A stretch of DNA of 53,838 bases from a virus (IMGVR_UViG_3300030012_003138:1-53838); one strand, 5' to 3'; numbered from the stretch's first letter, positions 6,201-53,838 are shown. Made by a program: numbers and translations. Notes: a model not told the origin generated them from the sequence alone.

Positions 6201-7926
6201 CTAGGGGGATTTCAGGCAACCACTTTGGTGGGGTTCTCATTTCATTTATAACACGACTCAAAGTTTCCTCTGCGTCTTTTTCGTCCACTTCTATGACAAC
6301 TTCGTCATGCACGTGGAAAATGATATCCATCCCTTTGTTTTCGAGGCGGGTGAGTATATCAGAAAATATGTCTCGTGCAAGTGCTTGAGAAGCGTTTTCT
6401 GTTAAAAGACCTCCGTACAATTTTACAGGCATCTTTTTCGCTCCTTTAGCTACTAAACCAATATAATTTCTACGCCCGTATTGGAGCATGGTTTGGATAG
6501 CTCCGTAGTTAAGTGTACGCCCTGATGGTAATTCTATTGTAAAATCGTGTCCTAATGAATAAGCTACGTGTAAATTCCTTTGTAGTTTGTTCCAAAGGGC
6601 CACAACTCGTTTCATTTTTGTTCTGTATAATTTTACTGCCTTGACAGCTTCCGCTTCATCCATTCCAGAAATCAAAGCAAATTTTTTAGCTGATACAGAG
6701 TAGCCACAACCAAGAACCATTGTTTTTACTAGGTGACGTAGCGATGGGTCTTGATCTTTTAGAATGCCTTTCGATTTATCCCATTTGTCGAAACGTATTG
6801 CAAACGCTTCATAAATATCATCACTGTTTTTTATCTCTTCTAAAGAATCTTGGTCTTCTGCTAACCAACATAACGTCCTGACTTCTATTTGAGAAAGATC
6901 TACAACAACTAATTTATTGCCTTTTTTTGGTGATATTAAGCTTCTTAAATCAATACCGAACATTTCACCTCTCGGCAAGTTTTGTAGGTTTAAGTTACCT
7001 CCACTACCACTAAATCTACCTGTATGCGCTCCGTGATATAAAATACCCCCATAGTATCTATGATCGGACATTGTAGCATATTCAAAAGCTTCAAGCTTTC
7101 TTTTAAGTGAGTTCATCCTACGGTAGTCACGGACAGCGGAAATCCACTTGTACTTATCTTGATTTTCTTCGATCCATTTATTAGCTTCTTCGTCGGTAAG
7201 AGCTAAACTAGCAGGAGGTTCTAAGCCTTCTTTTTTGCATTCTTCATTGAAGGCTTTTCTAGATAGAATTGGTTTTTCATTTACCCAAGGGATATTGTTT
7301 TTAGCATCAAATAAAGTCTTATTAATTTTTATTAAATAGGTTTTCAATAGTTTAGTATCTATAGGGATGCCTCTTTGAACACATCTCCTGTTAGCAAGAC
7401 TTATGTTTTGCTCTTGTTTGGGCCAATCTTTTTCTAAGTCTTGCCATAATTTTAGGCATAGCTCCGAGTCTTTTAATGCGTATTCATCAACTTGTTTTTG
7501 GAAATCTTTAGACATACTAGACCATTTTTTGCCTGACATATTGTCCCTTGTAGATTTATCTACTTCTAAATTATACAAAGTCGTTGTAGCCCCTTTTAAC
7601 GACCTTGGCAAACCACAATAAGCAGCTAGGTCTGCGGTGCATACCCAATCCTCATACTCAAATTTAGGCCACCAGTTTTGGTCAACTCCATACAGGTAAA
7701 GTGTTTCATCGAACTGAGCGTTATGTGAGAGTACTCGATTGCCTGTTATCACACTCCAATCAAATTCTTTTTTAGGACAACCTACAAAACTTGTGCCTTC
7801 GTCCCCAACAGCACTGACTCGATAAGCATCAAAATCGCTGTGACTAAAGTAACCCAATAAACCTAAAGTTTTTACTGAGCAATCTTTATCGTAGTAAGTC
7901 TCAAAATCTATAGCAATAGTTTTCAT
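6163..7926 (-). CDS. polA: Family A DNA polymerase with 3'-5' exonuclease
   Basis: Exo I DFETY, HNAQFD, HTGRFSG..NLQNLP, motif A DLSQIEVR, motif B RHLVKTMVLGCGY, motif C HVHDE. Start taken at MKTIAIDFE. Confidence 0.95.
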   Translation of the reverse strand: MKTIAIDFETYYDKDCSVKTLGLLGYFSHSDFDAYRVSAVGDEGTSFVGCPKKEFDWSVITGNRVLSHNAQFDETLYLYGVDQNWWPKFEYEDWVCTADLAAYCGLPRSLKGATTTLYNLEVDKSTRDNMSGKKWSSMSKDFQKQVDEYALKDSELCLKLWQDLEKDWPKQEQNISLANRRCVQRGIPIDTKLLKTYLIKINKTLFDAKNNIPWVNEKPILSRKAFNEECKKEGLEPPASLALTDEEANKWIEENQDKYKWISAVRDYRRMNSLKRKLEAFEYATMSDHRYYGGILYHGAHTGRFSGSGGNLNLQNLPRGEMFGIDLRSLISPKKGNKLVVVDLSQIEVRTLCWLAEDQDSLEEIKNSDDIYEAFAIRFDKWDKSKGILKDQDPSLRHLVKTMVLGCGYSVSAKKFALISGMDEAEAVKAVKLYRTKMKRVVALWNKLQRNLHVAYSLGHDFTIELPSGRTLNYGAIQTMLQYGRRNYIGLVAKGAKKMPVKLYGGLLTENASQALARDIFSDILTRLENKGMDIIFHVHDEVVIEVDEKDAEETLSRVINEMRTPPKWLPEIPLDAEGKVLDKYEK

Positions 7927-7941
7927 AATTTTTGATGAGTT

Positions 7942-8015
7942 GTCCACCTACGTGAAACCTATGACACGTAGGTGGACTCCCCCATTTCGTATTGCGGAAC
8001 TCCTACCGCTTACGA
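7942..8015 (-). promoter_or_regulatory. Two hairpins in the polA leader
   Basis: Perfect 13-bp inverted repeat GTCCACCTACGTG/CACGTAGGTGGAC (7942-7977), plus a TCGTA..GCGG/CCGC..TACGA stem. Confidence 0.55.
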
Positions 8016-24300: not shown

Positions 24301-25533
24301 CAACTTGAGCAGGAAGCAGCAGATAAAGTTCTGAGGACTTCACAATCTTATAGTAGATCAGCTCCTTTGATTGGGGGATTGTCTAAACCCCCTTATGGAA
24401 CCATGTTCGCACCATTCGTTCGATTCAAAGGCGAGTTAGTACGTATATTTGTTAACACTCCATTGCTTGCGATTGAAGAAATGAGTGATAGTAATCCTGT
24501 AATCAAAAGAAGAGGCATGGCTAGAATGGGCGGTCTTACCTTTACCACAGTAGGGTTATCTGCGTTACTCCCAATTATGCTCAGACAAGTGCTTGATGTG
24601 GAAGATGACGAGGATCAAGCTTTGAGAAGAACGCTCCCATCTTACCTCAAAAACCATACTTTCTTTTATTTCAAAGGGAAGGATGGGGACTTGTATTCAG
24701 TTGATATGACATATATCAACCCTTACTCATTGCTGGTAGATCCCTTTTTACGTACCATTGAACAAGGTTTATCAGGAGAAAGTCCAGCTAAGATGGGCGC
24801 TACTCTTGTAAAGAGTATGATATTTGATGAGTATTTAGATGAACAGATATTCGCAGGTGCTTTGAGTAGCTTCTTAAAAAACAGGAACCCACAGAATAAT
24901 AAAAAGATATGGGAAGAAAGAGACTCAACGGAACTCGCTTTTATGAAGGGAGCTATGTTCTTATTTGATGAAGCTGTTAACCCACCTATGCTGAAAGCAG
25001 CTATTGAGGCAGCCAAGATAAGTAAAGTTAACTCCATTGAAGAGGCTTTAAAACGGATAGGTAGAGAATTCTTACCCGCAAAACCACACAAGATTGATTT
25101 GTTTAGGAGTATGCGGAGATATTTATTCGATGCACGTAGGGAATCACAAAACATATCTCTTAGAAAGAATGAAGTGTTAAAAGATAGTCCTATGACTGAT
25201 CTTGAGATCAAAAAACTTATATTAAATGAAGTGGATCACAGAGTTCGTATAGATAAAGAAGTAGCGCACACACTTAAAAACATACAATCTCTTGGCGGTA
25301 TGACAGATAAAGAAGTGCGAGATATTGTTTTTGGAGCGCAGTTTGGTAAGCGGAGATATAAGTATCTAATGCAGGGACTTACAGAAACCCCAAAAGAAAC
25401 TCACGTAGCCTTACGGAAAAAGATAAAGGATAAATATAATTCTACGCAAGACCAAGAGTTTTTACGTAGATTAAATATAATAGACCAAGTTTATAAAAGC
25501 GTCCCAAGATTCTATAGTCACGAAGATATTTAA
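18400..25533 (+). CDS. Giant internal virion / DNA-ejection protein (2377 aa)
   Basis: Helical, with G/A-rich hydrophobic membrane-type segments (AAMGAALMAGMATGLITAGFSAVGAGG) and a zincin-like EEIIHA motif. Confidence 0.7.
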   Translation: MTGKLTSNSLEFNIFDSTPTETPIKFSQWSNEFGTGITGEEDKIIGYSNYLREFELDQGSLDNKKEALIHKGALKAIAKINPEYELRSDVGTIDTDAALLYDAFGQEARDNFLDSINNGADRNDFTDEVNDAKRHLVEHDILPLASLKTTNSEGNSTYEVIGSSGILDSKKAINNAISKGALRHRDMWQVGIAMKPIHKGVNGFQAIRDNQIRSELAELSDSEEDKNLYDDIVSDSKKYFNNPSKDKDSSALITKARTLLARGFSRDKDIKEDVSRNRFQDADIINSLEQIASFESYQRGEIPFIENKDKLADNIKVTKNGAVIPHIGLVLDKSKFDSAIELKKDLSKAQVRSLKNYRKTFFTQQFPAYDDLFKDSTVENKWAKALMEGKQNNKSNGEILDEFLQNPKNYSSFKNKLGAIKDSIADSFTGLALVIPALFENQGAIDYLVAQEEDRMNRREVAKVFGKDFGFVMDVSTAIAPMVTDISATILLSSGTLGFGGAGYLAVKQGTKLTTKGLIKSLVASPLRRNARESTLTQAERLIKQGIIKGSPDVETVTEAISAYNKLLTKEVTKTVTKKVTTKEGAEELVKKEVKDVTRSNLVAGVQTSALFLTAANRSAGATYTTVYSNLEGTHAEKHDAAMGAALMAGMATGLITAGFSAVGAGGFDDAFLRGMTFRQKKTILENMRRSKIANEKTYGEQLKKIISQRIKEITPKTFSQTYQRFLRSGTEEFFEEAVDDFVNGFITDAALDQDTPMIEKISSAIYSGAIGGVIGQGAAGVRALADKKNLFASGGIENFRRAEENEIIKRLEDTGSPETARLVADRERRTALRLELRKPAGDTSMDFTSVFSPLDQEGDTKKTPDTTETTDTPTQQTDPRNFQTEQSEGSVAPESLDVIDDYLEKKISREDANKQFEEIRKKKEGTPTKVETKDDSLDADETILDETSQSQLQVLKSIEDLDSLTEIEAEQFDTLKEQLKDAAIVAQTFGVPMRIVPEELVNENTRAFEFKYSKVGNDVEATIQIDPKQLYSIVKGLNKNSAKGLIRAVISEEIIHAATYAEFTPQEISELFNDLSPEDVASIQRDYYINEVGDVEQSSIRLNDPEQAESEQRVIVREFLRMEVQKSLRGTTTESEIRFYKTNPSLFASLLRYMRNFIRKLTNLLKRDKDNARLHIATNRIVNTYNTMRYGYRLFDIPAFDPDNPLESVNVLRAHLEATETDQELPPDMATSVEVSQSQVSGEAETDTLLLKHGNLAGMLTLPLMTTGEYRGKYRKLKKWLNGLKGSQDPRLQRLHQQSIAIRNAAFKEMQRYKKLLDYYVAKEYPDGEVPVHLFRAITGDGTGLQLPTSVKKKIKRELGKKEKQIYAELNELKVGTQEHADKRKELDELDNLRDQAYELAFQAQKMELGRLRNEAIEQLGGFEADGVTPKKEIAKHLLALRKKTDEFSKAIRDSYPNSEGVADSLAATIDANLEVYITRSYKLFSEAGFAERMMESDADYYVERRSAAAEYFEKQYVNERARQIYLQRRYKFLRTDESENLSEGIIAKEAGIKGDTINGETVYEVFSMEDARKLAKAELNLDKEKGADLSNPIEAEMKAFLEQYVPKDVDASLLVKDKENAKPIKTVLTNNLKKRRKIPLVLRNFMGEEQDATGYDAIMKTYMHVAIMASKQSFLRNLVEFGSKQENKWFVTADEAKTLNDKLKDQKDSEGKRYTKITNNADPRFDPFVISGTRNSRYYVPEDLKTALQSILKGLSLDKATDDATIIAENIAKTAGWLTGLSMGAKTLGSVGFYIRNALSNMLYFAPSQGIIAPVGLTSGLIKEVWRKRGIYLDGVFQPEAINAYYLKLDVLNIIEDEIRPKLLEELFRGEITPNKMMDDMRKTVDDIVAHPEGGADFLDKVNGKVSELPKPIKKLYDKLRTLSAAMDSFYKIYYFEYELKSLKKAKEDSIKAGRNDKYAQMDEMQLEQEAADKVLRTSQSYSRSAPLIGGLSKPPYGTMFAPFVRFKGELVRIFVNTPLLAIEEMSDSNPVIKRRGMARMGGLTFTTVGLSALLPIMLRQVLDVEDDEDQALRRTLPSYLKNHTFFYFKGKDGDLYSVDMTYINPYSLLVDPFLRTIEQGLSGESPAKMGATLVKSMIFDEYLDEQIFAGALSSFLKNRNPQNNKKIWEERDSTELAFMKGAMFLFDEAVNPPMLKAAIEAAKISKVNSIEEALKRIGREFLPAKPHKIDLFRSMRRYLFDARRESQNISLRKNEVLKDSPMTDLEIKKLILNEVDHRVRIDKEVAHTLKNIQSLGGMTDKEVRDIVFGAQFGKRRYKYLMQGLTETPKETHVALRKKIKDKYNSTQDQEFLRRLNIIDQVYKSVPRFYSHEDI

Positions 25534-29928: not shown

Positions 29929-31194
29929 ATGAGCCACGGAATTACAATTGAAGATACCGTATTAACTAGAGAAATAGATGAAAGGGCATGGCATTTGCTA
30001 GATAATCAAGTTAGGGAAATTTTCCCAACTTTAGAAAAAGCCAAGGAAGATCCAGAAAGCTATATACTCCATTCAAGAATATTACATGATATTCTTGAGG
30101 GTGATGCTTTTGCACTGGTAAACCCAGACAGATATAAAGAGCTGATCAATAAAGCCGAACTTGAAAACGGTCTGAATATTGAGGATCTAAGAGAATTGAA
30201 TTCGCTTTTTGTTGAGTGTGAGGATAACAAAATCTTAACCACTCAACTAGAAAGCGGAATTCATGCCCCAATCGGAACCCCATCAAAAAGTTATTGCCCG
30301 ATAACGAATGAAGAACTTTTGGAATCAATCGACTCCAATTTACAGGGTTTATATGATTACGATATTATCACAATGGGAACCACCCAAGGACGGAAAAGGT
30401 TTTTCGCTACTCTTAAAATTAACGGAGCGGATGAAAGCACTATAAACGGTGATAGATACAAAAATTATATCAATGTCATGCAATCCTCAAATGGCTCTAT
30501 ATCTGGGCAAGCTCATGACTCCGCCATCCGTGTTGTTTGTGATAACACCATAAAAGCAAGCTTGGCGAATAAAGGCGATCTTTATTTAAAACTCCGTAAA
30601 ACTAAAGGCGCAAAAGGTAGACTTGACCAATTTGGGAAAACTGTTGCTACCTTGATTAGTGGGCGGGATTTATTTCAATCTATGCTAAAACAATTTGCTA
30701 GTGTTGAATGTGATAAATTAAAAGCTGCAAAACTTTTCGCATCTTGGAAAGGTTTGGAAGTAGGGGACGAATTAAGTTCAAGATCATTTAATCAAATTCT
30801 AGCCGTTCAAGAACTAGCCGAAAATGGAAAAGGTCAAAACTCATGTAATACGCTTTATGACTTGTTTAACGGAGTAACAGAATTCTATACAAGTGGAGAC
30901 GGAAGCGGAAGGACTAGAGCGCTTAAACAAAACGCAACGGAAGAAGAGCGCCTCGACAACGAGCGCAAAAAATGGAATAAATTCCATTCTTCAGAATTCG
31001 GAACTGGCGCAGATCAAAAAGTTAAGTTTACTTCTTGGCTTCATAAAGTTCTAAATGATAATGAACTCGAAGCGGAAGCGGAAAAAGGGCGCTTGTTATT
31101 ATCTAATAAAATGGAATTCGACAAGCAAAAAGCTAACAACAAGATCAACAAGGCGCAAGCAGTCGATAACCTAGAAGAAGCTTTAAAAGCCTAA
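29929..31194 (+). CDS. DUF932-family protein (TIGR03299-like phage/plasmid protein)
   Basis: Y.PI.N.E, G...GRKRFF, S.NGS, IRVVCDNT, TLYDLFNGVTEF motifs. Confidence 0.8.
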   Translation: MSHGITIEDTVLTREIDERAWHLLDNQVREIFPTLEKAKEDPESYILHSRILHDILEGDAFALVNPDRYKELINKAELENGLNIEDLRELNSLFVECEDNKILTTQLESGIHAPIGTPSKSYCPITNEELLESIDSNLQGLYDYDIITMGTTQGRKRFFATLKINGADESTINGDRYKNYINVMQSSNGSISGQAHDSAIRVVCDNTIKASLANKGDLYLKLRKTKGAKGRLDQFGKTVATLISGRDLFQSMLKQFASVECDKLKAAKLFASWKGLEVGDELSSRSFNQILAVQELAENGKGQNSCNTLYDLFNGVTEFYTSGDGSGRTRALKQNATEEERLDNERKKWNKFHSSEFGTGADQKVKFTSWLHKVLNDNELEAEAEKGRLLLSNKMEFDKQKANNKINKAQAVDNLEEALKA

Positions 31195-32899: not shown

Positions 32900-32927
32900 T
32901 TGATTCAAACTCTTTTCTATGTATCAT
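32900..32927 (+). promoter_or_regulatory. sigma70-like promoter, leaderless
   Basis: TTGATT-16-TATCAT, then 6 nt to the ATG at 32934. Confidence 0.6.
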
Positions 32928-32933
32928 GGTAAC

Positions 32934-33398
32934 ATGACCGAATTAATAGAAGATATCGAAAAAAGACCTATCCCTGATACGAAATATGAGATAGATCAGC
33001 ATGGTTTTGTATACAATAAAGGCAGAAGACTCCGTTCGCAGTATAAGAGCGGGCGGTGGTATTGTCGTATATACACAAAAGCAGGTAGGCAACTATCTAT
33101 CGACGTAAAAAAACTAGCTGACTTATTATTTAGTGAAAGCGCCCCTCCTAAATTGACTAGAGAGATTATCGAAGGCCGTATTAATGCTCGCCCCCTTCCA
33201 GAACACCCTAGATATTCCGTTACTGAGTATGGAGCTGTTTATTGCATGGAACCTCCCCGAAGAGGACCGAATGCAGGTAAACTTTATATGGTATCTACTA
33301 AAACTAATGTGTCAGGAAAAAAATATGTTGCTTTATATGATTACGAAGGGTGCAATCGATATGTTCAAGTGCAAGCGTTGGTAGACTCTGTATGGTGA
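32934..33398 (+). CDS. Tandem NUMOD4-like DNA-binding protein without an HNH domain
   Basis: Two repeats, RPIPDTKYEIDQHGFVYN and RPLPEHPRYSVTEYGAVY, each ending in a V..L...F/W helix. Confidence 0.6.
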   Translation: MTELIEDIEKRPIPDTKYEIDQHGFVYNKGRRLRSQYKSGRWYCRIYTKAGRQLSIDVKKLADLLFSESAPPKLTREIIEGRINARPLPEHPRYSVTEYGAVYCMEPPRRGPNAGKLYMVSTKTNVSGKKYVALYDYEGCNRYVQVQALVDSVW

Positions 33399-42229: not shown

Positions 42230-43543
42230 GTGCCTGTACAGAGAAATCAACCAAGCCCTCAAAGGCAGTCAGTATTAACATTTGTATCTCCAAATGTTCA
42301 AGATTTATTATTTTATGAGACTGTAGATAAACAACGGGTTGGTAAAACACCCCCTGTTTATGGGTCAGCACACCCAAACACTACTAAGTTCCCTAACCAC
42401 AAACTAGTTTATGTTAAACAGTTTGATGCCGAGGGGCAGTTATACCAATACTACTATGCTGCTTCTAGGTCTAGCCAAGATGAATATAACTTTGAATATT
42501 CTCAAGCTAGTTTAGGAAACTCTAAATTTAATACTGTAGTCAGGACTTATGTTATTCCTAGGTCTGATTTTAAAGAAGATGATGCATCTTTAGAGGCTGG
42601 TGATGCTATGCCCACTGAACCTTCTTCAGCTAACTTTACTGATAAAGGGTATATTCTAATGTCCCGCCAACAAAAAAGATTAAGAGATCCAGAATTAGAC
42701 GGGCATTTTATTGTTGAGCAAAGAGTTTATTTTATTAGGGAAGACATTGAAACCCTGAAGTGGGATGAGTTATCGGGTTCTAATTTAAAAACAACAGTTA
42801 GTTATTTTGCGTTGGGAGAGACTCCTACTGGAGCTTCTTCAAATATACAGACTTTAATTTCTGATGCTGATAATTCTTATTGGGGTACTGCTATAGAGTA
42901 TAGAGAAGATTCACCCTCTCAGGGAAACTTAAACAAAGCAGTCGCTTTTTATAAAGAAGGAAGACAGGTATCTTTAGATTGGTTTGAAGTTGTAAAGATA
43001 GAAACAATGGCTGGTACAACTACTGATGGAACAATAAACTCAGCTACTACTTTACTTATTGAAGAACTAAATACCTCAATTAATTTTACATTCCCACCAG
43101 TTTTACAAAGCATTTCATCTGTTGCTTGGGAAAAGCATGATGGTCAAGTTCAACATAATCCAGAGTATCATATGAATCCAGAAGGGTATAGTGGACCTTG
43201 TAGAGCTGTAATTAAAAAAGAATATAGGACAACAGAGTTTGATCTCGACGTTCCTAAAGCTATGCAGCCCCAGTCTTTTGCATTTTCTACTCCTTATATA
43301 AATATAAGAATACCCTCTTGTTTAATTGATGGTCCAGCGTTAGGTAGTGAAATTGGATTCACTACAGGAACTACTGACCCTGTATATAAATATACCGCAT
43401 ATATTAAAACATTACCTAAAACAGATCCACCAAATCTTAAAAAGATAGCTGAAACTGGGCTTAGAGCTAGAGTCATCCAACAAAAATCTAGGGGTGGTTA
43501 TATAAAAGAAACTACTACTGTATTCCCTCCGTCTTTTAATTAA
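42230..43543 (+). CDS. Putative tail structural protein
   Basis: Beta-rich 437 aa, coupled to the giant fibre gene. Confidence 0.55.
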   Translation: MPVQRNQPSPQRQSVLTFVSPNVQDLLFYETVDKQRVGKTPPVYGSAHPNTTKFPNHKLVYVKQFDAEGQLYQYYYAASRSSQDEYNFEYSQASLGNSKFNTVVRTYVIPRSDFKEDDASLEAGDAMPTEPSSANFTDKGYILMSRQQKRLRDPELDGHFIVEQRVYFIREDIETLKWDELSGSNLKTTVSYFALGETPTGASSNIQTLISDADNSYWGTAIEYREDSPSQGNLNKAVAFYKEGRQVSLDWFEVVKIETMAGTTTDGTINSATTLLIEELNTSINFTFPPVLQSISSVAWEKHDGQVQHNPEYHMNPEGYSGPCRAVIKKEYRTTEFDLDVPKAMQPQSFAFSTPYINIRIPSCLIDGPALGSEIGFTTGTTDPVYKYTAYIKTLPKTDPPNLKKIAETGLRARVIQQKSRGGYIKETTTVFPPSFN

Positions 43544-46500
43544 TGCCTGAACAATTTACAGATGGTAATATTGGAGCTTTCGGAGCTCCCATATCTCCTG
43601 CTGACAGGGAAGTAACTGAGTCTTCACTAAACAAAATCCCTGATGTGGGATTACAAGGGTATACCGACAGTGGGGCTTATAGTAGTAATTATCCTTCGGG
43701 AATGGTTGGGTCTACTCCACAAGACGAGATTCGTTATCGTCAGGAGCATGAGCCTTATAATTATCAGCCAGACGATGATCAATTTGTTTATATAACAAAA
43801 GCTTATTTATATGAGATACATCCCTTACTAAATGAAGAGGAATCAAAGCTAATAAAAAAGCACGAGCTAAGTCCTTTAAAAATAAAGTTAGATACAAAGA
43901 AAGGTTGTGTATATACACAATTTATGGTGGATCAACAAGGGAAGGTTATAGGTGAATATAATCTTTTAAAGACAGAAGAGGATGAACCTCCCGATTCAAC
44001 ACCATTTCAGTTATTGAATGCAGATGGTGACGATGAGCCTGATAAGTACGGTATATATAATGTTCTTATATTTAAATTCGCAGATGGAGTTATTTTAAGA
44101 AATAATTATGATTCTGATAAAGATGATCCAAGATCTGTAAGAGGGCATGGTGGTATAGAAGGGCATAGGGGACCACTTATATGGTCCCGTGGTTATAATA
44201 CTATAAACAATTTAGGTATTGGGGGTGGGATGATATATGAAGGATATAATCTTACTGAGGATAAAATAAATTTACGAACCCTAATGGGGCAAGGTCAGAT
44301 CAGTGTATCAACGGCTGGTGATCAAATAAATATCCGAGGAAACAGTAATAATAAAACTTGGCAAGCAGTTCCTGATGATAACGTAAGTTATAGCAATACT
44401 ACATTAGCTACATTTGCAGATGGATTATTGACTGGAACCCCAAACGAGTTAAAAGTTGTAGAAGTTGCTAAATCAACAGGTTCGGGAACTACAGTTAACA
44501 CTTTTGTTGATACAGACGATGTAACATTGAATGTTGATACTCTAACATCTACTTCTGTAAATTTACCAACAGGTAGTGGTATAGAGTTATCTACTGAGAA
44601 GTATACTCCTACAGCAGTAAGTACTGAAGGACCAATAACACAGAAGGCTAACGCTTTAGTTGAAGGGACGGATATTGACCTTGACGCTGTCGAAGTAACT
44701 TCTGTAGAGATGCTTCCTCCAAGTGGGTCAAGTTTAGAGCTAGAAACGTATGATTATAAGCCTACATCAGTTTCTACTGAAGGGCCAATAACGAAAGAGA
44801 CTGGCAGTCTTAAAGAAGGATCAAACATTGACCTGCAAGCTGTTAAACTACAAACGCAAGCAATAACTCCTCCAAGTGGGTCAAGTTTAGATTTAGAAAC
44901 TAATCAATATGCTACCGTAGATTTAGGGTTTAAAACGACGGGTATAGATTCTACTGTTTTAAAAGGAGGTGATAATTTAACTACAACAGCTACTGAACTA
45001 CGTTCAAAAAGTGTGCCTGTTCAAGATACGGGAGTTAAGGAATATACATCTAAAGCATTTCCTCCCCATACTCTAACGGCTACAGCAGGAACTTTAAAAG
45101 AAGAAGTGGGGGCGGGGAATGACGTTACTTTATCATCAGTTGAATTAAGTCCAACTTCTTTGTCTGGGATAACTTTAAGTCGTAAGACATACACCCCAAC
45201 ACAAGTTGGCACTAAGACAACAACTGAAACTTCTTTTTACACAGGAGGTAATCAATTAACAACAACACCTACACCCTTATCTGTAACACGATCACCTGTA
45301 TTAGAATTTGATACTAAAAAATATACTTCTAGGCAGTTAGAGCAACTATCATTACAAAAGAAGACTAATATTTTATCTAAATCAGCATCTACGGCAGAAA
45401 CTACTTTAGAAGCAACTGCGTTAAAAACTACTTCAATAACTCCTCCAAGTAGTACTCCACTATCTTTAGGGACTAAGACATATACTCCTAGAGCGTTATC
45501 TAAACAGACATTAACTAAAGAAACTACTGCTTTAAAAGGTGGTAGTGAGTTAGACACAACTGTTGCTACTTTAAGCACAAAAAAAGCAGACATTGTTTCT
45601 TCTACACCGAACACTTATAAAGCTAGGTCGTTAGATAAAACAACTTTATCCCCTCAGTCGAAAGCTTTACACGGAGGTAACCCCCTTACCTGTCATCCGA
45701 CAGATTTAAACACGGAGACTCTTGAAGCTCCCGAACTATCCGTCAAAACTTTTACTACTACTGAGTTAGGAACTGCTTCTTTATCAAAGCAAGATATGAC
45801 GACTAAAGCGTTTAGTCGTGTTGAAGAAACTTTTAATGAAAATTTAAAGCAACAATTAAAGGCTTTAAAAGGTGGTACTGATTATATCTGTACTCCTACA
45901 GATATGACGACTAAAGCGTTTAGTCGTGTTGAAGAATCTCTTGATGAAAATTTAAAGCAACAATCAGGTGCTTTAAAAGGCGGTACTAATTACACATGCA
46001 CCCCTACGGCTATGACGACTAGAGCGTTTAGTCCTGTTGAAGAATCTCTTAATGAACATTTACAACAACAATCGGGTACTTTAAAAGGTGGTGTTGATTA
46101 CACATGTAATCATACAGATTTTAAAGTTAAGACGTTTAGTCGTGTTGAAGAATCTTTTAATGAAAATTTAAAGCAACAATCAGGTGCTTTAAAAGGTGGT
46201 GCTGATTACACATGCACTCCTACGTCTATGACGACTAAGTCGTTCACGACTCAAGCTAATGCCTTACAAGGTGGTAGTAATTTAGATTTAGTATATAGAG
46301 AGGTCTACCTTACAGATAATCAAACGCCTGTTTGGGTCTTAGGACCAAAGAATGTTCCATCAAATACTTCTGCTACGGTAACTGCTGTTGTTGGAGTAGA
46401 GAGATATACAGGAATAAAGAGGTCGGATGGCAACACTGCTACTAATTTCCATTTATACCAATCTGGGACTGATCCAGTTACTGGTAATAATAAAGTATTA

Positions 46501-49500
46501 ACTACAGATAGTGTTAGTACGGATACAGTAACACTTAGAAAAGACATCGGCACATATGTAGGAGTCAGAAATCTTTCCGATGCTTCTGTTTATTTATATA
46601 GTACAACAGGGGCTTCGGACACTAGAGTATACATAAAACCACCCGACAGTAGTCCTGTTGAGAACAGTCATCATTTATATTATGCTGCTAGTGAGGTTTC
46701 TGATACTAAAGTACTAACTACAGATTCTAGTGATACTACAGTAACACTTAAAAAAGACATTTCGGATTATGTAGGAGTCAAAAATCTTTCCGCTCCTGAT
46801 GTTTATTTTTATAGTACAACAGGAGCTACAGACACTAGAGTATACCTAAGTCCACCCGACAGCAATACCACTCAAAATTTATACTTTGCTGCTAGTCCAG
46901 TTACTGGTAATAATAAAGTATTAACTGTAGATAGTGTTGATACAGATGATGTAACACTTAGACAAGACATTGGTACATACACAGGTGTTACAAATCTTTC
47001 CGCTGCTTCTGTTTATTTATATAGTACAACAGGGGCTTCGGACACTAGATTATATCTAAGCCCACCTGCTAGTGAGACTGATAGTCCTTACAATTTATAT
47101 TTTTCTACGGATGCAGTAACTAGTTCTAAAGTATTAACTACAACTGACTCTAGCACAGATGATGTAACACTTAGACAAGACATTGATGAATACACAGGTG
47201 TTACAAATCTTTCCGCTACTGATGTTTATTTAAATACTACAACAACCCCTACAGACACTAGAGTATACCTAAGTCCACCCGACAGTAATACTACTCAAAA
47301 TTTATATTTTTCTGCGGATGAAGTAACTAGTTCTAAAGTATTAACTACAACTGACTCTAGCACAGATGATGTACTATTTTATACTGCTGAAAGCACAGGA
47401 AAACGATTTTTAGAGGCTGATGCTGATGACAGCAACGATGATACAACTAATGTATACTGTACTAATAATGCTACACAAAGCAGAAATTTTTTAAGTAACA
47501 CTACTAATTCTAGTAAAACCACGTATCACGTATACACAAATGCGGATTCAGTATCAGGACAGAAATTCTTAAAAACCGACTCAGATAATACAGACGAAGT
47601 TTTAAGAACTGGTATGCAAGAATTTATTGCCATTAAGGGAATATCTTCTGATGTTTCATTGTACCAAGCTCCTCCACCACAAGCAAATTCATCAGATACT
47701 TTCTTAGAAACTGCATCTGCCTCTGCTGCGGATACTTTTTTATATTCAACCTCAGATGATACTCCAAGAAGATTATTGGCTAAATCAGGTACAGATTCAG
47801 ATACTACAATTCAGTTATATAATGCGGGTACGGGCGATACAGTTGTTGAAACAAAGGTTTTAGAATTAGATTCAAGTGCTACGGGTGATAAAAAATTAAC
47901 GGTTGGTGCTACATCATTCGATGCAGTGACTGGAATCCCACAAACTGATGATTCCGTTGAGCTTTACAAAGCTCCTGTTCCATCAGCAGATTCAACAGAC
48001 ACGTTCTTAGAAACTTCAGAGTCAACTGACCAACATCTTTATTTTTCATCGGGAGCATCGACACATAGTGTTATAACTAGTTCAGGTACTGCTATAAACG
48101 TTGTACACACTGTTGATAGTAGTTCAGGAGCTGCTGTAACTTTTTCAGACACAAAATTTGTAAAGATAAAAGCAGGGGATGATTGGGCAGGGGACGAAAA
48201 ATCTTTCATGCACACAATCGACGACTTTGACGGGGTAACTGCCACAGTAGGAGATGGAGTTAATGTTTATAAAGCTGTTGATGAAGATGATAATCCATCC
48301 CACAGATTTTTAGAAACAAACGACAGTACGGGAACTGAGTCACATATTTACGCTACTACGTTAGCAGCTACTGATACTAGATTTTTAACTACAGGAGATT
48401 CTGCTAGTGACCTCTTTTTATATTCCACGGCTAATAATGATAATACCACAAAGTTCTTAACAGTACCTGATAGTGTACAAGGACAGAAAATTTTAAGATC
48501 TGGTATGGCTTCTTCGAATGCTGTTACAGGTATTCCAAACGGGACTAGGTTATATTTTACAGATACTGATGAACCTTCTGATGCAAGATTCTTAAAAACA
48601 ACTCATACAGATAATACAGACAATACACATATCCTATATGTTTCAGATAGTACTGATGCTAGGACATTCTTAACTAGTTCAGGAAGTGACATAGGTATTT
48701 TAACTTCTGATTCTGTATCAGGAGTATCAGCAGCCAATTATGTAAAAGCTAATAACGACTCATTATCTTCTGGTAAAGTATTCAAACACACTATTGGTAC
48801 CTACACAGGGCTTTCTTCTAATGATAATGGAAATGTTATTGTATATGAAGCACCTGATTCAACTACACGAAACTTTTTACAAACAGGAGAAACCGCAGGG
48901 AATAGTCATCGTGTTTATTCTACAGACACCTCAACAACTAGCACTAGATTTTTAAGCACTTCAGAAGATGATTCTTCACTTACCTCACTTAATTTATATT
49001 CTACAGCTTCTCCTGATACTACTACAAAGTTTTTGAAAGTATCTGATAGTGAATCAGGAAACAAAATTTTAAAGCATGGCATAGACAATTTTAATGCTGT
49101 TACAGGTATTCCAAACGGAACTAATTTATACCACGCAGGAAGTGCTTCTACCCACCATTTCTTAAAATCTCCTACAGCTTTATCAGACCATCATGTTTAT
49201 TTTTCTGATACTGCTAGTGACTCTAGCAACAAAATGCCATTTGTAACAAGTTCAGGTAGTAGTATAAATATTGTAAAATCTTCTGATGATTCTAATACTG
49301 GTGCTTTCTCACTAACAAGGTTCTTAAAAACAACAGGAGATAACGTGGCTGCCCTTGATAGTGTTTCTAAAACTTTTAAGCATTCGTTTGGGACTTATAC
49401 TGGAATTAACGGGGACCAACTTTCAAATGCCAGTAACATTTACGTATATACCACAAGTGCAGCTAGTTCTAATAGTTCGGAAAAGTTCGTAAAGACTACG

Positions 49501-50019
49501 GATACAGGTGATAAGCACGTATTTATTTCTGCCAATAGCACCACCAGAAACTTTATAACTAGTACAGGTAGTGCAGTAAATGTTTTAACTGCGGGTAGTA
49601 TGAGCAATACTTCTACCGCTAAATTAGTAAAAACAGCAAACACTAACGTCGATGCCCTTGATAGTTCTAAAACATTCCAACATACATTTGATACTTATAC
49701 TGGTATGACAGGACTTTCGGGTACTAGTGATATCCGTTTGTATTCTACAGTTGGTGCTGATACTACAAAGTTTGTAAAGACTGACGCTAATCACAACACC
49801 ACAAAATTCTTGTATGTTTCTGACGCTAATAACCCTAGAACCTTCATAACTAGTACAGGATCTTCTAATACTAATGTTCTTACAAGTTCTAGTGACGTAA
49901 ATGTGTTAACAACAAATAATGTTGATCCTTCTTCAATCACACTAGTTAAGTCTGTAAATACCACACCTTCAACATTACAGACGGTTTCTGACTCCGTAAA
50001 AGTATTGAAAGCCCCTTAA
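43543..50019 (+). CDS. Giant T/S-rich fibre/spike protein with mirrored repeat architecture (2158 aa)
   Basis: Two sets of internal repeats in reverse order around a centre at about 46290-46350. Confidence 0.8.
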   Translation: MPEQFTDGNIGAFGAPISPADREVTESSLNKIPDVGLQGYTDSGAYSSNYPSGMVGSTPQDEIRYRQEHEPYNYQPDDDQFVYITKAYLYEIHPLLNEEESKLIKKHELSPLKIKLDTKKGCVYTQFMVDQQGKVIGEYNLLKTEEDEPPDSTPFQLLNADGDDEPDKYGIYNVLIFKFADGVILRNNYDSDKDDPRSVRGHGGIEGHRGPLIWSRGYNTINNLGIGGGMIYEGYNLTEDKINLRTLMGQGQISVSTAGDQINIRGNSNNKTWQAVPDDNVSYSNTTLATFADGLLTGTPNELKVVEVAKSTGSGTTVNTFVDTDDVTLNVDTLTSTSVNLPTGSGIELSTEKYTPTAVSTEGPITQKANALVEGTDIDLDAVEVTSVEMLPPSGSSLELETYDYKPTSVSTEGPITKETGSLKEGSNIDLQAVKLQTQAITPPSGSSLDLETNQYATVDLGFKTTGIDSTVLKGGDNLTTTATELRSKSVPVQDTGVKEYTSKAFPPHTLTATAGTLKEEVGAGNDVTLSSVELSPTSLSGITLSRKTYTPTQVGTKTTTETSFYTGGNQLTTTPTPLSVTRSPVLEFDTKKYTSRQLEQLSLQKKTNILSKSASTAETTLEATALKTTSITPPSSTPLSLGTKTYTPRALSKQTLTKETTALKGGSELDTTVATLSTKKADIVSSTPNTYKARSLDKTTLSPQSKALHGGNPLTCHPTDLNTETLEAPELSVKTFTTTELGTASLSKQDMTTKAFSRVEETFNENLKQQLKALKGGTDYICTPTDMTTKAFSRVEESLDENLKQQSGALKGGTNYTCTPTAMTTRAFSPVEESLNEHLQQQSGTLKGGVDYTCNHTDFKVKTFSRVEESFNENLKQQSGALKGGADYTCTPTSMTTKSFTTQANALQGGSNLDLVYREVYLTDNQTPVWVLGPKNVPSNTSATVTAVVGVERYTGIKRSDGNTATNFHLYQSGTDPVTGNNKVLTTDSVSTDTVTLRKDIGTYVGVRNLSDASVYLYSTTGASDTRVYIKPPDSSPVENSHHLYYAASEVSDTKVLTTDSSDTTVTLKKDISDYVGVKNLSAPDVYFYSTTGATDTRVYLSPPDSNTTQNLYFAASPVTGNNKVLTVDSVDTDDVTLRQDIGTYTGVTNLSAASVYLYSTTGASDTRLYLSPPASETDSPYNLYFSTDAVTSSKVLTTTDSSTDDVTLRQDIDEYTGVTNLSATDVYLNTTTTPTDTRVYLSPPDSNTTQNLYFSADEVTSSKVLTTTDSSTDDVLFYTAESTGKRFLEADADDSNDDTTNVYCTNNATQSRNFLSNTTNSSKTTYHVYTNADSVSGQKFLKTDSDNTDEVLRTGMQEFIAIKGISSDVSLYQAPPPQANSSDTFLETASASAADTFLYSTSDDTPRRLLAKSGTDSDTTIQLYNAGTGDTVVETKVLELDSSATGDKKLTVGATSFDAVTGIPQTDDSVELYKAPVPSADSTDTFLETSESTDQHLYFSSGASTHSVITSSGTAINVVHTVDSSSGAAVTFSDTKFVKIKAGDDWAGDEKSFMHTIDDFDGVTATVGDGVNVYKAVDEDDNPSHRFLETNDSTGTESHIYATTLAATDTRFLTTGDSASDLFLYSTANNDNTTKFLTVPDSVQGQKILRSGMASSNAVTGIPNGTRLYFTDTDEPSDARFLKTTHTDNTDNTHILYVSDSTDARTFLTSSGSDIGILTSDSVSGVSAANYVKANNDSLSSGKVFKHTIGTYTGLSSNDNGNVIVYEAPDSTTRNFLQTGETAGNSHRVYSTDTSTTSTRFLSTSEDDSSLTSLNLYSTASPDTTTKFLKVSDSESGNKILKHGIDNFNAVTGIPNGTNLYHAGSASTHHFLKSPTALSDHHVYFSDTASDSSNKMPFVTSSGSSINIVKSSDDSNTGAFSLTRFLKTTGDNVAALDSVSKTFKHSFGTYTGINGDQLSNASNIYVYTTSAASSNSSEKFVKTTDTGDKHVFISANSTTRNFITSTGSAVNVLTAGSMSNTSTAKLVKTANTNVDALDSSKTFQHTFDTYTGMTGLSGTSDIRLYSTVGADTTKFVKTDANHNTTKFLYVSDANNPRTFITSTGSSNTNVLTSSSDVNVLTTNNVDPSSITLVKSVNTTPSTLQTVSDSVKVLKAP
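45792..46240 (+). repeat. 108-bp (36-aa) coding tandem repeat x4
   Basis: TTTAGTC(G/C)TGTTGAAGAA at 45811, 45919, 46027, 46135. Confidence 0.9.
46473..47373 (+). repeat. 210-213-bp (70-71-aa) coding tandem repeat x4
   Basis: GACACTAGA at 46618, 46831, 47041, 47254. Confidence 0.9.
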
Positions 50020-50066
50020 CAGTTCATGGGTTGAATTGCGATGTAAACGCCTTATATTTAGGTATC

Positions 50067-51116
50067 GTGCCAGCTAAAACTACAGAACAATTATTTGCTA
50101 CTCATTCTCAATATTTAGACGTTTCAAAAGCAACACCTAATGATTTTAGGAATGCTTTGAATGAAATAATGCCAAGAATCTATAAATTAGGTTTTTGGCG
50201 TGAAATGTTATTAGAGCATTCTCAAGATGCTTCTGATGGTTATGTATCATTACCTCAGAACACGGACGCTATAATTTACGGGATATTAGATAATAATCCA
50301 GTGAGTACCCGCTCACTTTGGCATGACTACAAAATGGTGGGAACTAACGATCAGGATAAAACTACCCTTACTGCTTTTATAGATGATGGATACGCCCCTG
50401 TATATAGAGATCTTGAAGCAGATAGTAATTATAAGATTTTTGTGGCAACTCTAAAAGAACCTTTCAATACACTTCCTGACAGGGGGAAGGTGACTGTTAA
50501 GTACAGACAATATGCGGATGCAGCAGATGCTCCTAATGCGTTGATTCCTCCAGATACTGTTTTAAAAGGAGCTTCTTTTAATGAAGCAACCTTTGATTTT
50601 TCGACCCTAACTGGAGGCCCATATCCTGAGTCTTCAATAGATGCAGATTCTGATGTAACTGAAATTATATCTATCACATGGGATAATGTGGAAACAGACC
50701 ATCCTTTTATTGTTAAAGCAAAATACAAAGGAATATCAGGAGGAGCACAGGGAGATGACTCTACTAAAGATTTACTTTTAGCTGAAATCAATTCTAAGAG
50801 AGGCTCTTCTAGATATAGGAGATTTAGAATTGGGGGTACAAACGCATCGTCTTCAGCCCATATGCTATTAAAAAGAAAGTGGGTGGAAGTTGATAGTTCT
50901 AGCGATCTGGTACATATGCCATCTAACGCTATCCTTAAACACGCTTTATTGGGAAAGTTGGGAGAAGACAACGCTGATTTAGAAAGATCTCAATATCACT
51001 GGGCAAACGTTGCAAGTTTATTGGAGTCAGATACAGACTCTTATAGAGGAGCTGCAAAGCCTACTCTTAGGATAGCTCCAGATGGTGTTGGAGCTGGAAT
51101 GCATGGAATGTATTAA
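50067..51116 (+). CDS. Putative head-tail adaptor / tail tubular protein
   Basis: ALNEIM.RI....W...G.V.LP pattern and helical termini. GTG start (MPAKTT) behind TTGAAT-16-TATATT. Confidence 0.55.
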   Translation: MPAKTTEQLFATHSQYLDVSKATPNDFRNALNEIMPRIYKLGFWREMLLEHSQDASDGYVSLPQNTDAIIYGILDNNPVSTRSLWHDYKMVGTNDQDKTTLTAFIDDGYAPVYRDLEADSNYKIFVATLKEPFNTLPDRGKVTVKYRQYADAADAPNALIPPDTVLKGASFNEATFDFSTLTGGPYPESSIDADSDVTEIISITWDNVETDHPFIVKAKYKGISGGAQGDDSTKDLLLAEINSKRGSSRYRRFRIGGTNASSSAHMLLKRKWVEVDSSSDLVHMPSNAILKHALLGKLGEDNADLERSQYHWANVASLLESDTDSYRGAAKPTLRIAPDGVGAGMHGMY

Positions 51117-51125
51117 TTAATTATT

Positions 51126-51551
51126 ATGGCTAACATAGATTTAAAAAGAGGGCAACAAACTCAACTTAAGTTAAATTATAAACCTGACGGGATATCCGCT
51201 ACACGTAACTTTTACACTGATGATGCTCAATACACTGCGTCTTTAGTGTTGCGTAAAAAAGCAGGAGGATCTGTTTCGGGAGAAAAAATTGATACTTTAT
51301 CTAGTATAACTAGTGGGTCAGGCCAAAACACTACAGGGAGGATCAGGTTTCCTCAGCTAGGGGCTGATGACAGAACCGATGGGACACAAGAAGACCCTAA
51401 TATTATATTAAGGTGGGAAACAACAGATGCTAACGCTTTACCTAACGAAGCAATAACTATATTTGGTGATTTGAAAATTACAGACACTGATGTCAGTGAA
51501 GTTATTGAGTCGATTAGAATTACAATTGATATAGTACCAGAAATTATCTAA
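51126..51551 (+). CDS. Tail-fibre-associated small beta protein (BppU-N-like)
   Basis: I.LKRG..., YTA.L.LRK, DL.I.D, I.I.PEI pattern. TAATG-coupled to the fibre gene. Confidence 0.55.
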   Translation: MANIDLKRGQQTQLKLNYKPDGISATRNFYTDDAQYTASLVLRKKAGGSVSGEKIDTLSSITSGSGQNTTGRIRFPQLGADDRTDGTQEDPNIILRWETTDANALPNEAITIFGDLKITDTDVSEVIESIRITIDIVPEII

Positions 51552-53838
51552 TGGCCAATGATACAGTTACCGTTACACAGACAGTTAATACGATTTCTGT
51601 TGATGATTCATCCCCAAGTACATTAACAGTTAGTTCTGATTCGGGAGGGACAGTTACTCTTTCTGATAACACTCCTAGACTCGTTACAGTTTCTATATCG
51701 CCTGTCTCTTCTACTTTAACTTTGGAAAGCAATTTTGCTCCCAAGGAAAGCCCTATATTTACAGGGACTCCGCTTGCACCTACTGCATCAGCAGCTACTA
51801 ATAACACACAGTTAGCTACAACGCAGTACGTCACCACAGCAATAAATAATCTCACAGACTCCAGCCCCGACACACTCAACACACTCAATGAGCTTGCTGC
51901 TGCATTGAATGACGATGAGAACTTTGCTGGCACTATAACTTCATCGATAGCGACCAAGCTTCCTTTAGCGGGTGGCACGATGACTGGTAACATTACCATG
52001 TCAGGTAGTCAGACTGTCGATGGTCGTGATCTTTCTGTTGATGGAGCAAAGCTAGATGGTATAGAAGCTTCAGCTACAGCAGATCAAACTGCTGCGGAAA
52101 TTAGAACATTAGTAGAGTCTGCTTCTGACTCGAACGTATTTACTGATGCTGATCATAGTAAGTTGAATGCTATTGAGGCCTCAGCTACAGCAGATCAAAC
52201 TGCTGCGGAAATTAGAACATTAGTAGAGTCTGCTTCTGACTCGAACGTATTTACTGATGCTGATCATAGTAAGTTGAATGCTATTGAGGCTTCAGCTACA
52301 GCAGATCAAACTGCGTCTGAGATACTTACACTAATCAAGACTGTTGATGGAGCGAGTTCTGGGTTAGATGCCGATTTACTTGATGGCAGTCATGCTTCAA
52401 CATTTGCACCTTTAGCAAGCCCTGCTCTTACAGGAACACCTACAGCACCTACAGCTAATGCTGGTACAGACACTACACAGATAGCAACGACAGCTTTTGT
52501 AAATGCTGCGGTAGCGTTAGAGAACACTTTAGCTGAGATGGATGATGTTAATCTTACATCTCTAGCAGATAATGAAATTTTACAATATGATAGTTCTTCT
52601 TCTAAGTGGTTAAACCAAACTTTAACCGAAGCAGGAATCCTCCCCCTCGCAGGAGGGACGATGACTGGTCATTTAAAATTAAATGACAATCAAAGGTTAA
52701 GGTTAGGCACATCAGCAGATGCAGATTTATATTCTACAAATACTAATATATTTTACGATCATAATAATTATGATGCGTTGTTTAGGCATTTAACAGCCGA
52801 TAAAGATTTTGTATTCTCCACAACTCCAAGTGGAGGAAGTTTAACGGAGCTGCTGAGACTTGACGCATCAACATTAAAAAATGTCTTTGGCAAAGGATTA
52901 AGAATCCCTGACGGGACTGGAGGAGATCCTGCTATATCATTTACTGGTGGAAGTGACACAGGCTTTTATAGATCTGATTACGTCTCTTCACCTCAGAAAG
53001 ACCAAGTCAACCTATCCATTGATGGGAATACAAAGTTCAAAGCAAATGAAGCAGGTATATGGTCAGTAGGTGGTAATATATATCTTGCTAATGGTCATCA
53101 GTTCAGAACTTTCCAAGAATGGTTAGCTACAACAGGTGGGTCAGGATACGGATTTAAGTTTAGAAACACAGCAGATTCTGTTGATTCTATGACAATATCT
53201 TCAGCAGGTAATGTGGTTGCTGCTGGTTCAGTCACAGCAACGTCAGCAGCCTTTGGTACACTTGAACTACATACAGCAGGAAATATTAATTACATATCCT
53301 CTCAGGACGCTTCTAAAGATCTAGTTATTAGAAATACTGCGTCTGGAAAAGACATGGTTCTGCAAGTTGCTTCTAGTAATGGGATTGCGGAGTTACTAAG
53401 ACTAAGAGGGATAACTTCTAAAGAGATAGTTTCTTCAGGCAATCTGGAAATACGCAACGGTACGAACAGTAGGCATATAAATTTATATGAAACTTTCTCA
53501 GACACCTCAAACTATGAGAGATCTTTCTTTAAGCATGCTTCTAGTTTCTTGGAGATAGGAACTGAGGCATTAGGCACGGGTACAGCGAGTGGTTTAAAAC
53601 TCAAGACAGCAGGTGCAGATAGAGTAACCGTTTTGTCTGGTGGTAATGTAGGTATAGGCACTACAAGCCCATCATCGTTATTAAATTTAAGTGATTCTTC
53701 AAACAACCTTTCTCATCAGATAGGATTTTCCTATGTAAGCGGGGGAACTGAGACGGACGCATTTACCATTGGAAGAAATAATTCTACAGGAAATTTAGAG
53801 TTTCATTCTGATATAAACAATCATGGTTTCGAGTTCAA
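51551..53838 (+). CDS. Tail fibre protein, N-terminal part (runs off the window, absent from ORF track)
   Basis: Open from the ATG at 51551 (MANDTVTVTQ...). Contains FTGTP.APT..ATT, TLNELAAALND, LPLAGGTMTG x2, GLDADLLDG and GNVGIGTTSP. Confidence 0.9.
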   Translation, partial: MANDTVTVTQTVNTISVDDSSPSTLTVSSDSGGTVTLSDNTPRLVTVSISPVSSTLTLESNFAPKESPIFTGTPLAPTASAATNNTQLATTQYVTTAINNLTDSSPDTLNTLNELAAALNDDENFAGTITSSIATKLPLAGGTMTGNITMSGSQTVDGRDLSVDGAKLDGIEASATADQTAAEIRTLVESASDSNVFTDADHSKLNAIEASATADQTAAEIRTLVESASDSNVFTDADHSKLNAIEASATADQTASEILTLIKTVDGASSGLDADLLDGSHASTFAPLASPALTGTPTAPTANAGTDTTQIATTAFVNAAVALENTLAEMDDVNLTSLADNEILQYDSSSSKWLNQTLTEAGILPLAGGTMTGHLKLNDNQRLRLGTSADADLYSTNTNIFYDHNNYDALFRHLTADKDFVFSTTPSGGSLTELLRLDASTLKNVFGKGLRIPDGTGGDPAISFTGGSDTGFYRSDYVSSPQKDQVNLSIDGNTKFKANEAGIWSVGGNIYLANGHQFRTFQEWLATTGGSGYGFKFRNTADSVDSMTISSAGNVVAAGSVTATSAAFGTLELHTAGNINYISSQDASKDLVIRNTASGKDMVLQVASSNGIAELLRLRGITSKEIVSSGNLEIRNGTNSRHINLYETFSDTSNYERSFFKHASSFLEIGTEALGTGTASGLKLKTAGADRVTVLSGGNVGIGTTSPSSLLNLSDSSNNLSHQIGFSYVSGGTETDAFTIGRNNSTGNLEFHSDINNHGFEF
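52070..52314 (+). repeat. Near-perfect 111-bp (37-aa) tandem duplication in the tail fibre
   Basis: CAGCTACAGCAGATCAAACTGC at 52071, 52182, 52293. Confidence 0.95.

Follow-up and report, generated by a model that had tools for sequence, protein, structure and literature searches.

Phage fibres are usually understood as parallel trimers extending from base to tip, the adenovirus triple beta-spiral is likewise a parallel N-to-C trimer, and to our knowledge the short gp37-type needle is the only well-known fold-back element, the gp37 tip having about 216 amino acids (aa). In the accessible text of PMC12609058, the T4 gp37 tip and the long and short tail fibres of Bas63 (collar, needle, head) are described as elements in which the chain reaches a distal head and doubles back, with a six-strand needle in the trimer, and iron-binding HxH motifs recur along needles of this type; T4 gp34 is a parallel N-to-C trimer according to the accessible part of PMC5537660. 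The fibre atlas of PMC12143355, in its accessible text, lists a class with a T4-like needle tip and no long fold-back class, and the words 'hairpin' and 'antiparallel' are absent from its main text. A long modular fold-back fibre is not described in the literature searched, which included the accessible text of PMC5537660, PMC5221442, PMC12609058, PMC12143355 and PMC9608196, subscription journals and supplements lying outside its scope. Here we describe a giant gene in IMGVR_UViG_3300030012_003138:1-53838, the whole 53,838-base virus record of an uncultured marine phage (completeness rating 87%; hereafter the window). The gene is a single open reading frame (ORF), 43543..50019 on the plus strand, encoding the 2158 aa of P0001 plus a stop, and its product is most likely a virion fibre attached to the tail of this phage.

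Two long repeat arrays, different in sequence, flank a short conserved center in this protein. The simplest account is a hairpin, because the arms are matched, nested and jointly varying, and we therefore consider it probable that the chain goes out to a tip and folds back, in an extensible fibre.

Architecture and mirrored unit order

With hidden Markov models (HMMs) trained on the homologue P0005, the protein parses into an N-terminal domain of about 300 aa, 14 N-arm units, a conserved tip and 14 C-arm units (Table 1). The N arm consists of nine long units, four of 36 aa and one short unit, the C arm of one short unit, four of about 70 aa and nine long ones, and self-BLAST in 80-aa windows gives two repeat zones, at aa ~290-915 and aa ~936-2158. 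In giants of the (1,1) type the parse gives an N arm of nine long units followed by a single 36-aa and a short unit, and, beyond the tip, a C arm in which a short unit and a single 70-aa unit precede nine long ones. Each N unit of about 48 aa is made of two halves, S and G, while the C units are made of a g motif and two or three short hairpin-like elements (hY..S....(K/R)FL.T). The proposed fold-back part comprises 1,866 aa, in arms of 639 and 1227 aa.

An earlier note on this DNA, made from the sequence alone, had already proposed arms of about 600 and 1220 aa in a ratio of roughly 1:2, and the measured ratio is 1.92. It had also said that the arms differ in sequence, and only one weak cross match appears among 125 internal BLAST matches. 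All 19 motifs that it listed are present (18 within 1 nt of the position given, the first, S1, 6 nt off), and both of its four-copy arrays were recovered by HMM, the one in the C arm with copies of 68-72 rather than 70-71 aa. The feature start that it gave, 44494, falls inside the right gene but some 317 aa downstream of the real start, and the N-terminal domain was omitted. Its S and G labels mark real motifs, but G is not a unit of its own, being half of an N unit. Three G-like motifs (aa 374, 425 and 524) had been missed, and in the C arm four extra g-type motifs of the FxH(T/S) kind, which have counterparts in P0005, were unlisted.

The order of the units is mirrored. A PPSGS-type motif is present in n1, n2, n3, n5 and n7 and an ITSSGS-type motif in c7, c9, c11, c12 and c13, and the pattern SSS-S-S-- of the N arm is thus mirrored by sss-s-s-- in the C arm; the reversed S/s order claimed in the earlier note survives the neutral HMM parse, as n1, n2, n3, n5, n7 against c13, c12, c11, c9, c7. 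By a strict regular expression the mirror is exact in 6 of 13 distinct giant homologues, and the remaining seven are each off at one position, where motif variants are found (PPDGTS in n3 of P0006-P0008 and their copies, FLTGSGS in c9 of P0002 and P0003).

The similarities among units follow the same order. Two 9x9 similarity matrices, one for the long N units and one for the long C units, were compared under permutation of the units. For P0005 the nine pairs give r 0.755 when mirrored vs. 0.262 when read forward, and only 33 of 362,880 permutations reach the mirrored value; r is 0.633 when n1/c13 is left out (77 of 40,320 permutations) and 0.568 when n1,n2/c13,c12 are left out (29 of 5,040). 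P0002, with rougher unit borders, gives a mirrored r of 0.344 (8,406 of 362,880). The mirrored matrices imply that the arms share one duplication history, read in opposite directions. A nested pairing, rather than a parallel one, follows from the position of the variable 36-aa and 70-aa arrays, both of which adjoin the center, and from unit types and similarities that match when reversed.

Joint variation of the arms in giant homologues

Other marine metagenome and virus contigs encode full-length homologues of 1723-2049 aa; seven further full-length proteins (1723-2037 aa) and other loci bring the sample to 16 complete giants. The lengths of the cores were taken free of any alignment, as the distances from the tip to fixed anchors in n9 (N-core) and in c5 (C-core), and N-core and C-core lengths fall into six states that lie on a line (slope 1.99, r 0.9994). 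For each state two kinds of paired sub-element were counted, the GG motif with the g-core and the SRVEE insert with the DTRxY hairpin. P0007 has an N-core of 69 and a C-core of 91 aa (GG/g-core 2/2, SRVEE/DTRxY 0/0), P0008 80 and 108 aa (2/2, 1/1), P0005 104 and 159 aa (3/3, 1/1), P0002 104 and 165 aa (3/3, 1/1), P0004 176 and 299 aa (5/5, 3/3) and P0001 197 and 347 aa (5/5, 4/4), both pairs being equal in number in all six states. The number of 36-aa units ranges from 0 to 4 among homologues, together with that of the 70-aa units, and units of the c1-c4 type are present in 4, 3, 1 or 0 copies, matching the 36-aa units. The two shortest states arose separately, because their deletion borders differ in both arms; deletion forms of the P0008 type have c0 fused to the unit after it.

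HMM matches over the whole arms (N-unit/g-motif) are equal at 9/9 in 2 rows, 10/10 in 7, 12/12 in 4, 1/1 in 13 and 2/2 in 2. They are unequal, at 9/10, in three rows in which c0 is fused to c1, at 13/9 in P0001, where three g motifs of the long C units are too divergent for the model to recognize at a domain E-value of 0.01 and c5 has lost its g part, and at 3/2 in P0033. The earlier note had named repeat number varying in one arm only as the observation that would tell against its hairpin; homologues mostly change their arms jointly.

At the DNA level, the 25 inverted-repeat pairs found are of 14-30 nt and scattered, none of them joining the 36-aa array to the 70-aa one, and a palindrome-driven symmetric expansion is thereby ruled out.

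Short relatives and the family skeleton

A phmmer scan with P0009 (529 aa) of 1.84 billion representative proteins yields only 22 clusters (50% identity), mostly of 450-900 aa, and reaches the giant cluster at E 1.5e-233. P0009 is a miniature of the giant: a single N unit and a single C unit, separated by the tip, follow the N-domain, and the C-terminus is that of the giant. In P0013 (676 aa) each arm holds two units, those of the N arm 50 aa long and 89% alike and those of the C arm 89 aa long and 86% alike, P0027 has 2.15 x 40 aa vs. 2.13 x 39 aa, and in the smallest members arms of about 70-90 aa directly follow the presumed anchoring domain. Short members (452-973 aa) have 0-2 recognizable unit pairs and an arm ratio of about 1, giants 11-14 pairs and a ratio of 1.8-1.9; residues in the returning arm per residue in the outgoing one number about 2 in P0009 and the giant clade (50 vs. 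89, 48 vs. 96, 36 vs. 70) and stand at 1:1 in distant short members.

Base and tip are conserved throughout, with a variable shaft between them. The N-domain motifs RYRQEHEPY, GHRGP.W.GYN and DGL form invariant or near-invariant columns in alignments A1, A2 and A3. The base consists of DGLV.CL.DL.C after the N-domain and TV.VY..KFL..KVV.CP....C at the C-end, the tip of W.GG, a strand, a loop, WVLG and I.GA..TGV, and the stretches that join base to tip, one in each arm, are variable inserts. Members from 452 to 2158 aa retain the L.L.Y.EV strand and, after it, the W[VI][LM]G motif, and the central tip element (aa 910-960 of P0001) is also found in the 26 other rows of A3 except P0024, which, like its copies L047 and L048, is without the tip landmark.

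These landmarks were located by HMM in the short forms, including 37 further loci (L031, L047, L048, L049 and P0024 being dropped for a missing landmark). Over 41 distinct short forms, the N and C inserts range from 27/7 to 252/253 aa and rise together (Pearson r 0.958, Spearman 0.976, slope 1.06); a cruder measure of arm length gives r 0.949 and slope 1.03 in 29 short forms, and arm lengths taken from alignment columns r 0.85 in 27 rows. For independence, 21 pairs sharing no branch were chosen on a FastTree tree of the N-domain. Fourteen of these differ in length, and the contrasts give r 0.93. Where the change is at least 10 aa, 8 of 10 independent pairs shift both arms in the same direction and by similar amounts (N, C in aa: 70, 74; 42, 37; 10, 19; -101, -119; 17, 17; -78, -90; -103, -93; -126, -223).

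Cysteines stand at the base of some members, C.....C after the N-domain and CP....C at the C-terminus, in P0011, P0012, P0015, P0016, P0018, P0021, P0022, P0023, P0025, P0042 and P0044. The pattern is 2+2 in 11 members and 0+0 in 17, the giant and P0009 clades being without either pair. The four could form a clasp, through a metal site or disulfides, that closes the base of a hairpin.

Genomic setting

The record has genes for a family-A DNA polymerase, primase, helicase, exonuclease and large terminase. The polymerase (6163-7947, minus strand) is at most 27.8% identical to that of any of 50,697 deposited phage records, which marks a phage lineage without a close deposited relative, and the giant protein, its N-domain, the upstream protein and 23.8 kb of the DNA have no match in the same 50,697 records; the sources of the relatives are marine metagenomes and virus contigs. 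Pfam gives no family for the giant protein (E up to 0.01) or five neighbors, PHROGs give a single stray weak match for the giant protein, and sequence searches of the PDB return nothing relevant for the fibre or the gene upstream of it; other structural genes of the window gained no name either.

Table 1. Features of the giant fibre gene and its neighbors (positions in the window)
Feature	Position	Strand	Remarks
Upstream neighbor, 437 aa	42230..43543	+	conserved partner gene; without a match in Pfam, PHROGs or PDB sequences
N-terminal non-repeat domain, aa 1-300	43543..44442	+	most conserved part of the family; motifs RYRQEHEPY, GHRGP.W.GYN, DGL
N-arm long units n1-n9, aa 339-751, ~45-51 aa each, n9 shortened here	44557..45795	+	N-unit HMM trained on P0005
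N-arm 36-aa units n10-n13, aa 752-895	45796..46227	+	HMM, 85-87 bits each
N-arm short last unit n14, aa 896-913	46228..46281	+	without SRVEE insert; ends in last GG motif, aa 910
Conserved center, proposed distal tip, aa 914-936	46282..46350	+	two strands around a variable loop, end WVLGP
C-arm short unit c0, first part, aa 937-970	46351..46452	+	first g-like core (YTGIK)
C-arm units c1-c4 (HMM frame), 68-72 aa, aa 971-1253	46453..47301	+	HMM, 120-127 bits each
C-arm long units c5-c13, aa 1254-2158, ~96-114 aa each, tail KVLKAP	47302..50016	+	g-motif matches and reading of the translation
Downstream neighbor, 361 aa, head-to-tail adaptor-like	50031..51116	+	ESM Atlas structure and features
Separate tail-fibre gene, cut by the record end	51551..53836	+	27 PHROG families, best a tail fibre protein, best E 4.4e-49

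Giant and short fibres occupy a common genomic slot (loci L002, L004, L005 and L006), between a conserved gene of about 420-437 aa and an adaptor-like gene, both of which are present in L002 and L004. In those two loci proteins 58-74% identical to the upstream neighbor are encoded directly 5' of the short homologues, and homologues of the downstream gene (33-35% identity) follow the short fibres; L005 and L006 have a similar ORF. Pfam's own model gives no match for the 361-aa downstream protein, which was named from an ESM Atlas structure match to the PF24175 SU10_adaptor cluster (template modelling score 0.52/0.60, sufficient for a name) and from a feature score of 0.95 to a cluster in which 32% of members have PF24175. 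The adaptor-like neighbor suggests a short-tailed phage, and the phage is probably of that kind.

The separate tail-fibre ORF also has two sub-threshold Pfam matches. An ORF at 2-619 (plus strand), entering from the record start, matches tail-fibre PHROGs as well, and the record is probably cut, or circularly permuted, within one large tail-fibre gene comprising both; in the related locus L003 the equivalent position is taken by a 2381-aa ORF (L003 17858-25000). Behind the terminase and two unnamed genes comes another giant ORF (18400-25533, plus strand; 2377 aa), which has no PHROG family at E <=0.001 and no similarity to the fibre at a BLASTP E of 1e-5. Between the two blocks of structural genes lie a DUF932 protein (29929-31194, plus strand; Pfam E 1.8e-20) and a weak HNH endonuclease match (32919-33398, plus strand; PHROG E 9e-7). 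Within the fibre gene itself there is an antisense ORF of 120 aa (45252-45614, minus strand), most likely a chance frame in repeat-rich sequence.

Weighing the fold-back reading

In the hairpin fibre the N-terminal domain, probably the part that binds the virion, would anchor the protein with its ~300 residues, and the chain would pass outward along the N arm, with its 14 units, as far as a small tip of two conserved strands (L.L.Y.EV - loop - WVLG), turn there and return through the 14 C-arm units, so that the C-terminus would come to lie beside the start of the N arm. The pairing would be mirrored, n14 with c0, the four 36-aa units with the four 70-aa units and n9..n1 with c5..c13, each returning unit packing on its outgoing partner, presumably within one chain and in a trimer, and the hairpin-like elements of the C units would halve the rise per residue. 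The shaft would change length when a unit is duplicated or deleted in one arm and a matching change then follows in the other. The loop at the tip, which differs in sequence among the six giant core sequences, is as variable as might be expected of a contact site, and may bind the receptor.

Several observations weigh against this reading. The AlphaFold2 (AF2) model of P0013 (676 aa, 31-row alignment) has a mean predicted local distance difference test (pLDDT) of 46.6, with arms below 50 except for a short stretch at the tip, and that of P0016 (513 aa, 27 rows) a mean of 56.0, with 10-residue blocks of the arms at 31-57. Among the independent pairs with large changes, L027/L028 differ in the N arm only (L028 +21 aa), as do P0013/P0033 (50 aa), P0033 (726 aa) having three N and two C units; P0020 has a duplication of 74 aa in the C arm only, and in P0022 the expansion is unequal (3.2 x 21 aa vs. 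5.4 x 18 aa). The cysteine pairing follows clades and gives weak support, and the N-side landmark is misplaced in P0020 and P0026. The giants are closely related and recombine, and their six states are therefore not as many independent histories. Finally, per-unit divergence over 28 homologue pairs (mean r 0.404 mirrored vs. -0.289; 5,846 of 362,880 permutations, 647 of 362,880 after detrending) drops to 0.098 (9,976 of 40,320) without n9 and c5, and we give this test little weight because its signal depends on these two units, which adjoin the variable core.

The two one-arm pairs are the closest of the 10. From the one-arm variants it follows that the fibre tolerates arms out of step by about one unit, at least temporarily, and P0033 and L028 may be evolutionary intermediates with one arm ahead, or else products of misassembly where repeats are nearly identical. 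The parts outside the N-domain that are predicted with confidence in the P0016 model are the start of the N arm (blocks 321-350, pLDDT 73, 70 and 75) and the last 13 residues (79, 74), which would fit a closed base.

That the fibre is attached to the tail we regard as rather probable, and a location elsewhere, with the hairpin correct but forming a head or neck fibre or a capsid decoration, as somewhat unlikely. The 437-aa product of the conserved upstream gene could belong to the head, strong matches to tail-fibre PHROGs are found for a separate gene two places downstream, and in phi29 the head-fibre gene follows the capsid gene. The adaptor-like nature of the next gene speaks weakly for the tail instead, as does, also weakly, the predicted fold of the N-domain. 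Its core (model residues ~71-230) reaches pLDDT 70-89 in the AF2 models of two relatives, and both models give the same top ten fold matches (Z 4.0-5.5), all of them tail-fibre, receptor-binding, baseplate or TssK N-terminal domains. The best is the cyanophage A-1(L) tail fibre 8kec_A, with Z of 5.3 and 5.5, which lies below the safe level, values under 8 being possible by chance, and is without sequence similarity, a further point to be counted with those above. The others include TssK (5y0e/6n38/5m30), SPP1 gp22 (2xc8), lactococcal phages p2 (2wzp) and 1358 (4l92), the phi812 baseplate and HFTV1 (9h5b), with root-mean-square deviations of 3.2-5.1 A over 77-109 residues, and the next rows are unrelated (Z <=3.3). 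A fold search of viral models (BFVD) finds no match at E <=0.001, and the profile of alignment A2 against all PDB sequences finds only a ribosomal protein (E 0.27). The models thus offer a lead, not proof, that the N-domain may be a trimeric tail-attachment domain.

The arms might also pair between chains, with the N arm of one subunit antiparallel on the C arm of another in a domain-swapped or head-to-head arrangement. Fibres are oligomers in which swapping is common, and all the covariation fits such an arrangement equally well. It is unlikely all the same, since the two strands of the short, conserved tip, joined by a tight loop, are modelled in P0016 as adjacent (E406-411 and E421-426, pLDDT ~52) and suit a simple turn, and since an antiparallel assembly of the minimal arms, which start directly after the anchor, would put anchors at both ends.

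A linear fibre, made of two unrelated tandem-repeat shafts in series with the center as a junction and with numbers matched by chance or by pressure on total length, agrees with the tandem Ser/Thr/Gly-rich repeats usual in linear fibres, with T4 gp34, described as a parallel homotrimer in the accessible part of PMC5537660, with the one-arm changes in P0033, in L028 vs. L027 and in P0020, and with predicted models, of low confidence in the arms, none of which shows the arms in contact, but it is very unlikely, since pressure on total length fails to predict the equal counts of two sub-element pairs in six states, the slope of 1.99 with r 0.9994 or the mirrored unit similarity (33 of 362,880 permutations), since a slope of about 1 extends across a ten-fold range of length in the 41 short forms and holds in independent pairs, since conserved elements stand at the ends and in the middle with variable inserts placed symmetrically, and since repeat numbers vary not independently, as expected of such a fibre, but in six matched states and jointly in 8 of 10 large changes.

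Significance and comparison with known fibres

If the hairpin reading is true, this is by far the longest fibre of fold-back design, and a hairpin that takes in the whole shaft, with up to 14 module pairs, is a new way to make a long, stiff rod of adjustable length. The part that contacts the receptor would then lie in mid-sequence rather than at the C-terminus, which changes where determinants of host range should be sought. Proteins in which two far-separated repeat arrays have to change together are rare in nature, and the family supplies such a case; intermediates with one arm ahead would be useful for studying the evolution and folding of repeat proteins. It belongs to uncultured marine phages without a deposited relative, and its members of 452-676 aa are tractable targets for structure determination. 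We also put forward, more tentatively and at a little less than even confidence, that this is a new fibre architecture: a shaft zipped up from discontinuous modules, each of one outgoing (~48 aa) and one returning (~96 aa) segment up to ~1,800 residues apart, with conserved tip and base, evolving by paired duplications from 1 to 14 modules, with no solved fibre related to it in sequence or fold, and with an origin separate from that of the T4 gp37 needle.

The short proteins of 452-973 aa share the giant's N-domain, tip motif, base elements and, in the loci examined, slot. To the fibres with a shoulder/TssK-like N-domain the family is likened by a core that aligns weakly (Z 4.0-5.5, in the range of chance arrangements) and without sequence similarity. 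It shares with the T4 gp34 shaft and the adenovirus triple beta-spiral long tandem arrays of short beta-rich repeats, but those fibres are without a second, mirrored array that varies with the first.

The likeness to the T4 gp37 needle, drawn in the earlier note, is apt as an analogy, and among known systems the gp37 tip is the nearest one. The tips of gp37 and the Bas63 fibres have outgoing and returning arms; in the family, arms that match and vary jointly and a mirrored order of units speak indirectly for such a course of the chain. The arms of the short relatives, about 70-250 aa and near-equal, are on the scale of the gp37 tip. The differences are several: there is no sequence or Pfam similarity, and the HxH motif is absent from the arms of the eight members checked (P0001, P0005, P0009, P0016, P0018 and P0025 have it nowhere, P0013 and P0027 once each, in the N-terminal domain). 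The proposed fold-back part of the family begins right after the anchor, whereas that of gp37 ends a long parallel shaft; it is modular and extensible, with 1 to 14 unit pairs, in the giant clade twice as many residues make up its returning arm as its outgoing one, and here it reaches 1,866 aa. The family would work like the gp37 tip but is not a member of that class.

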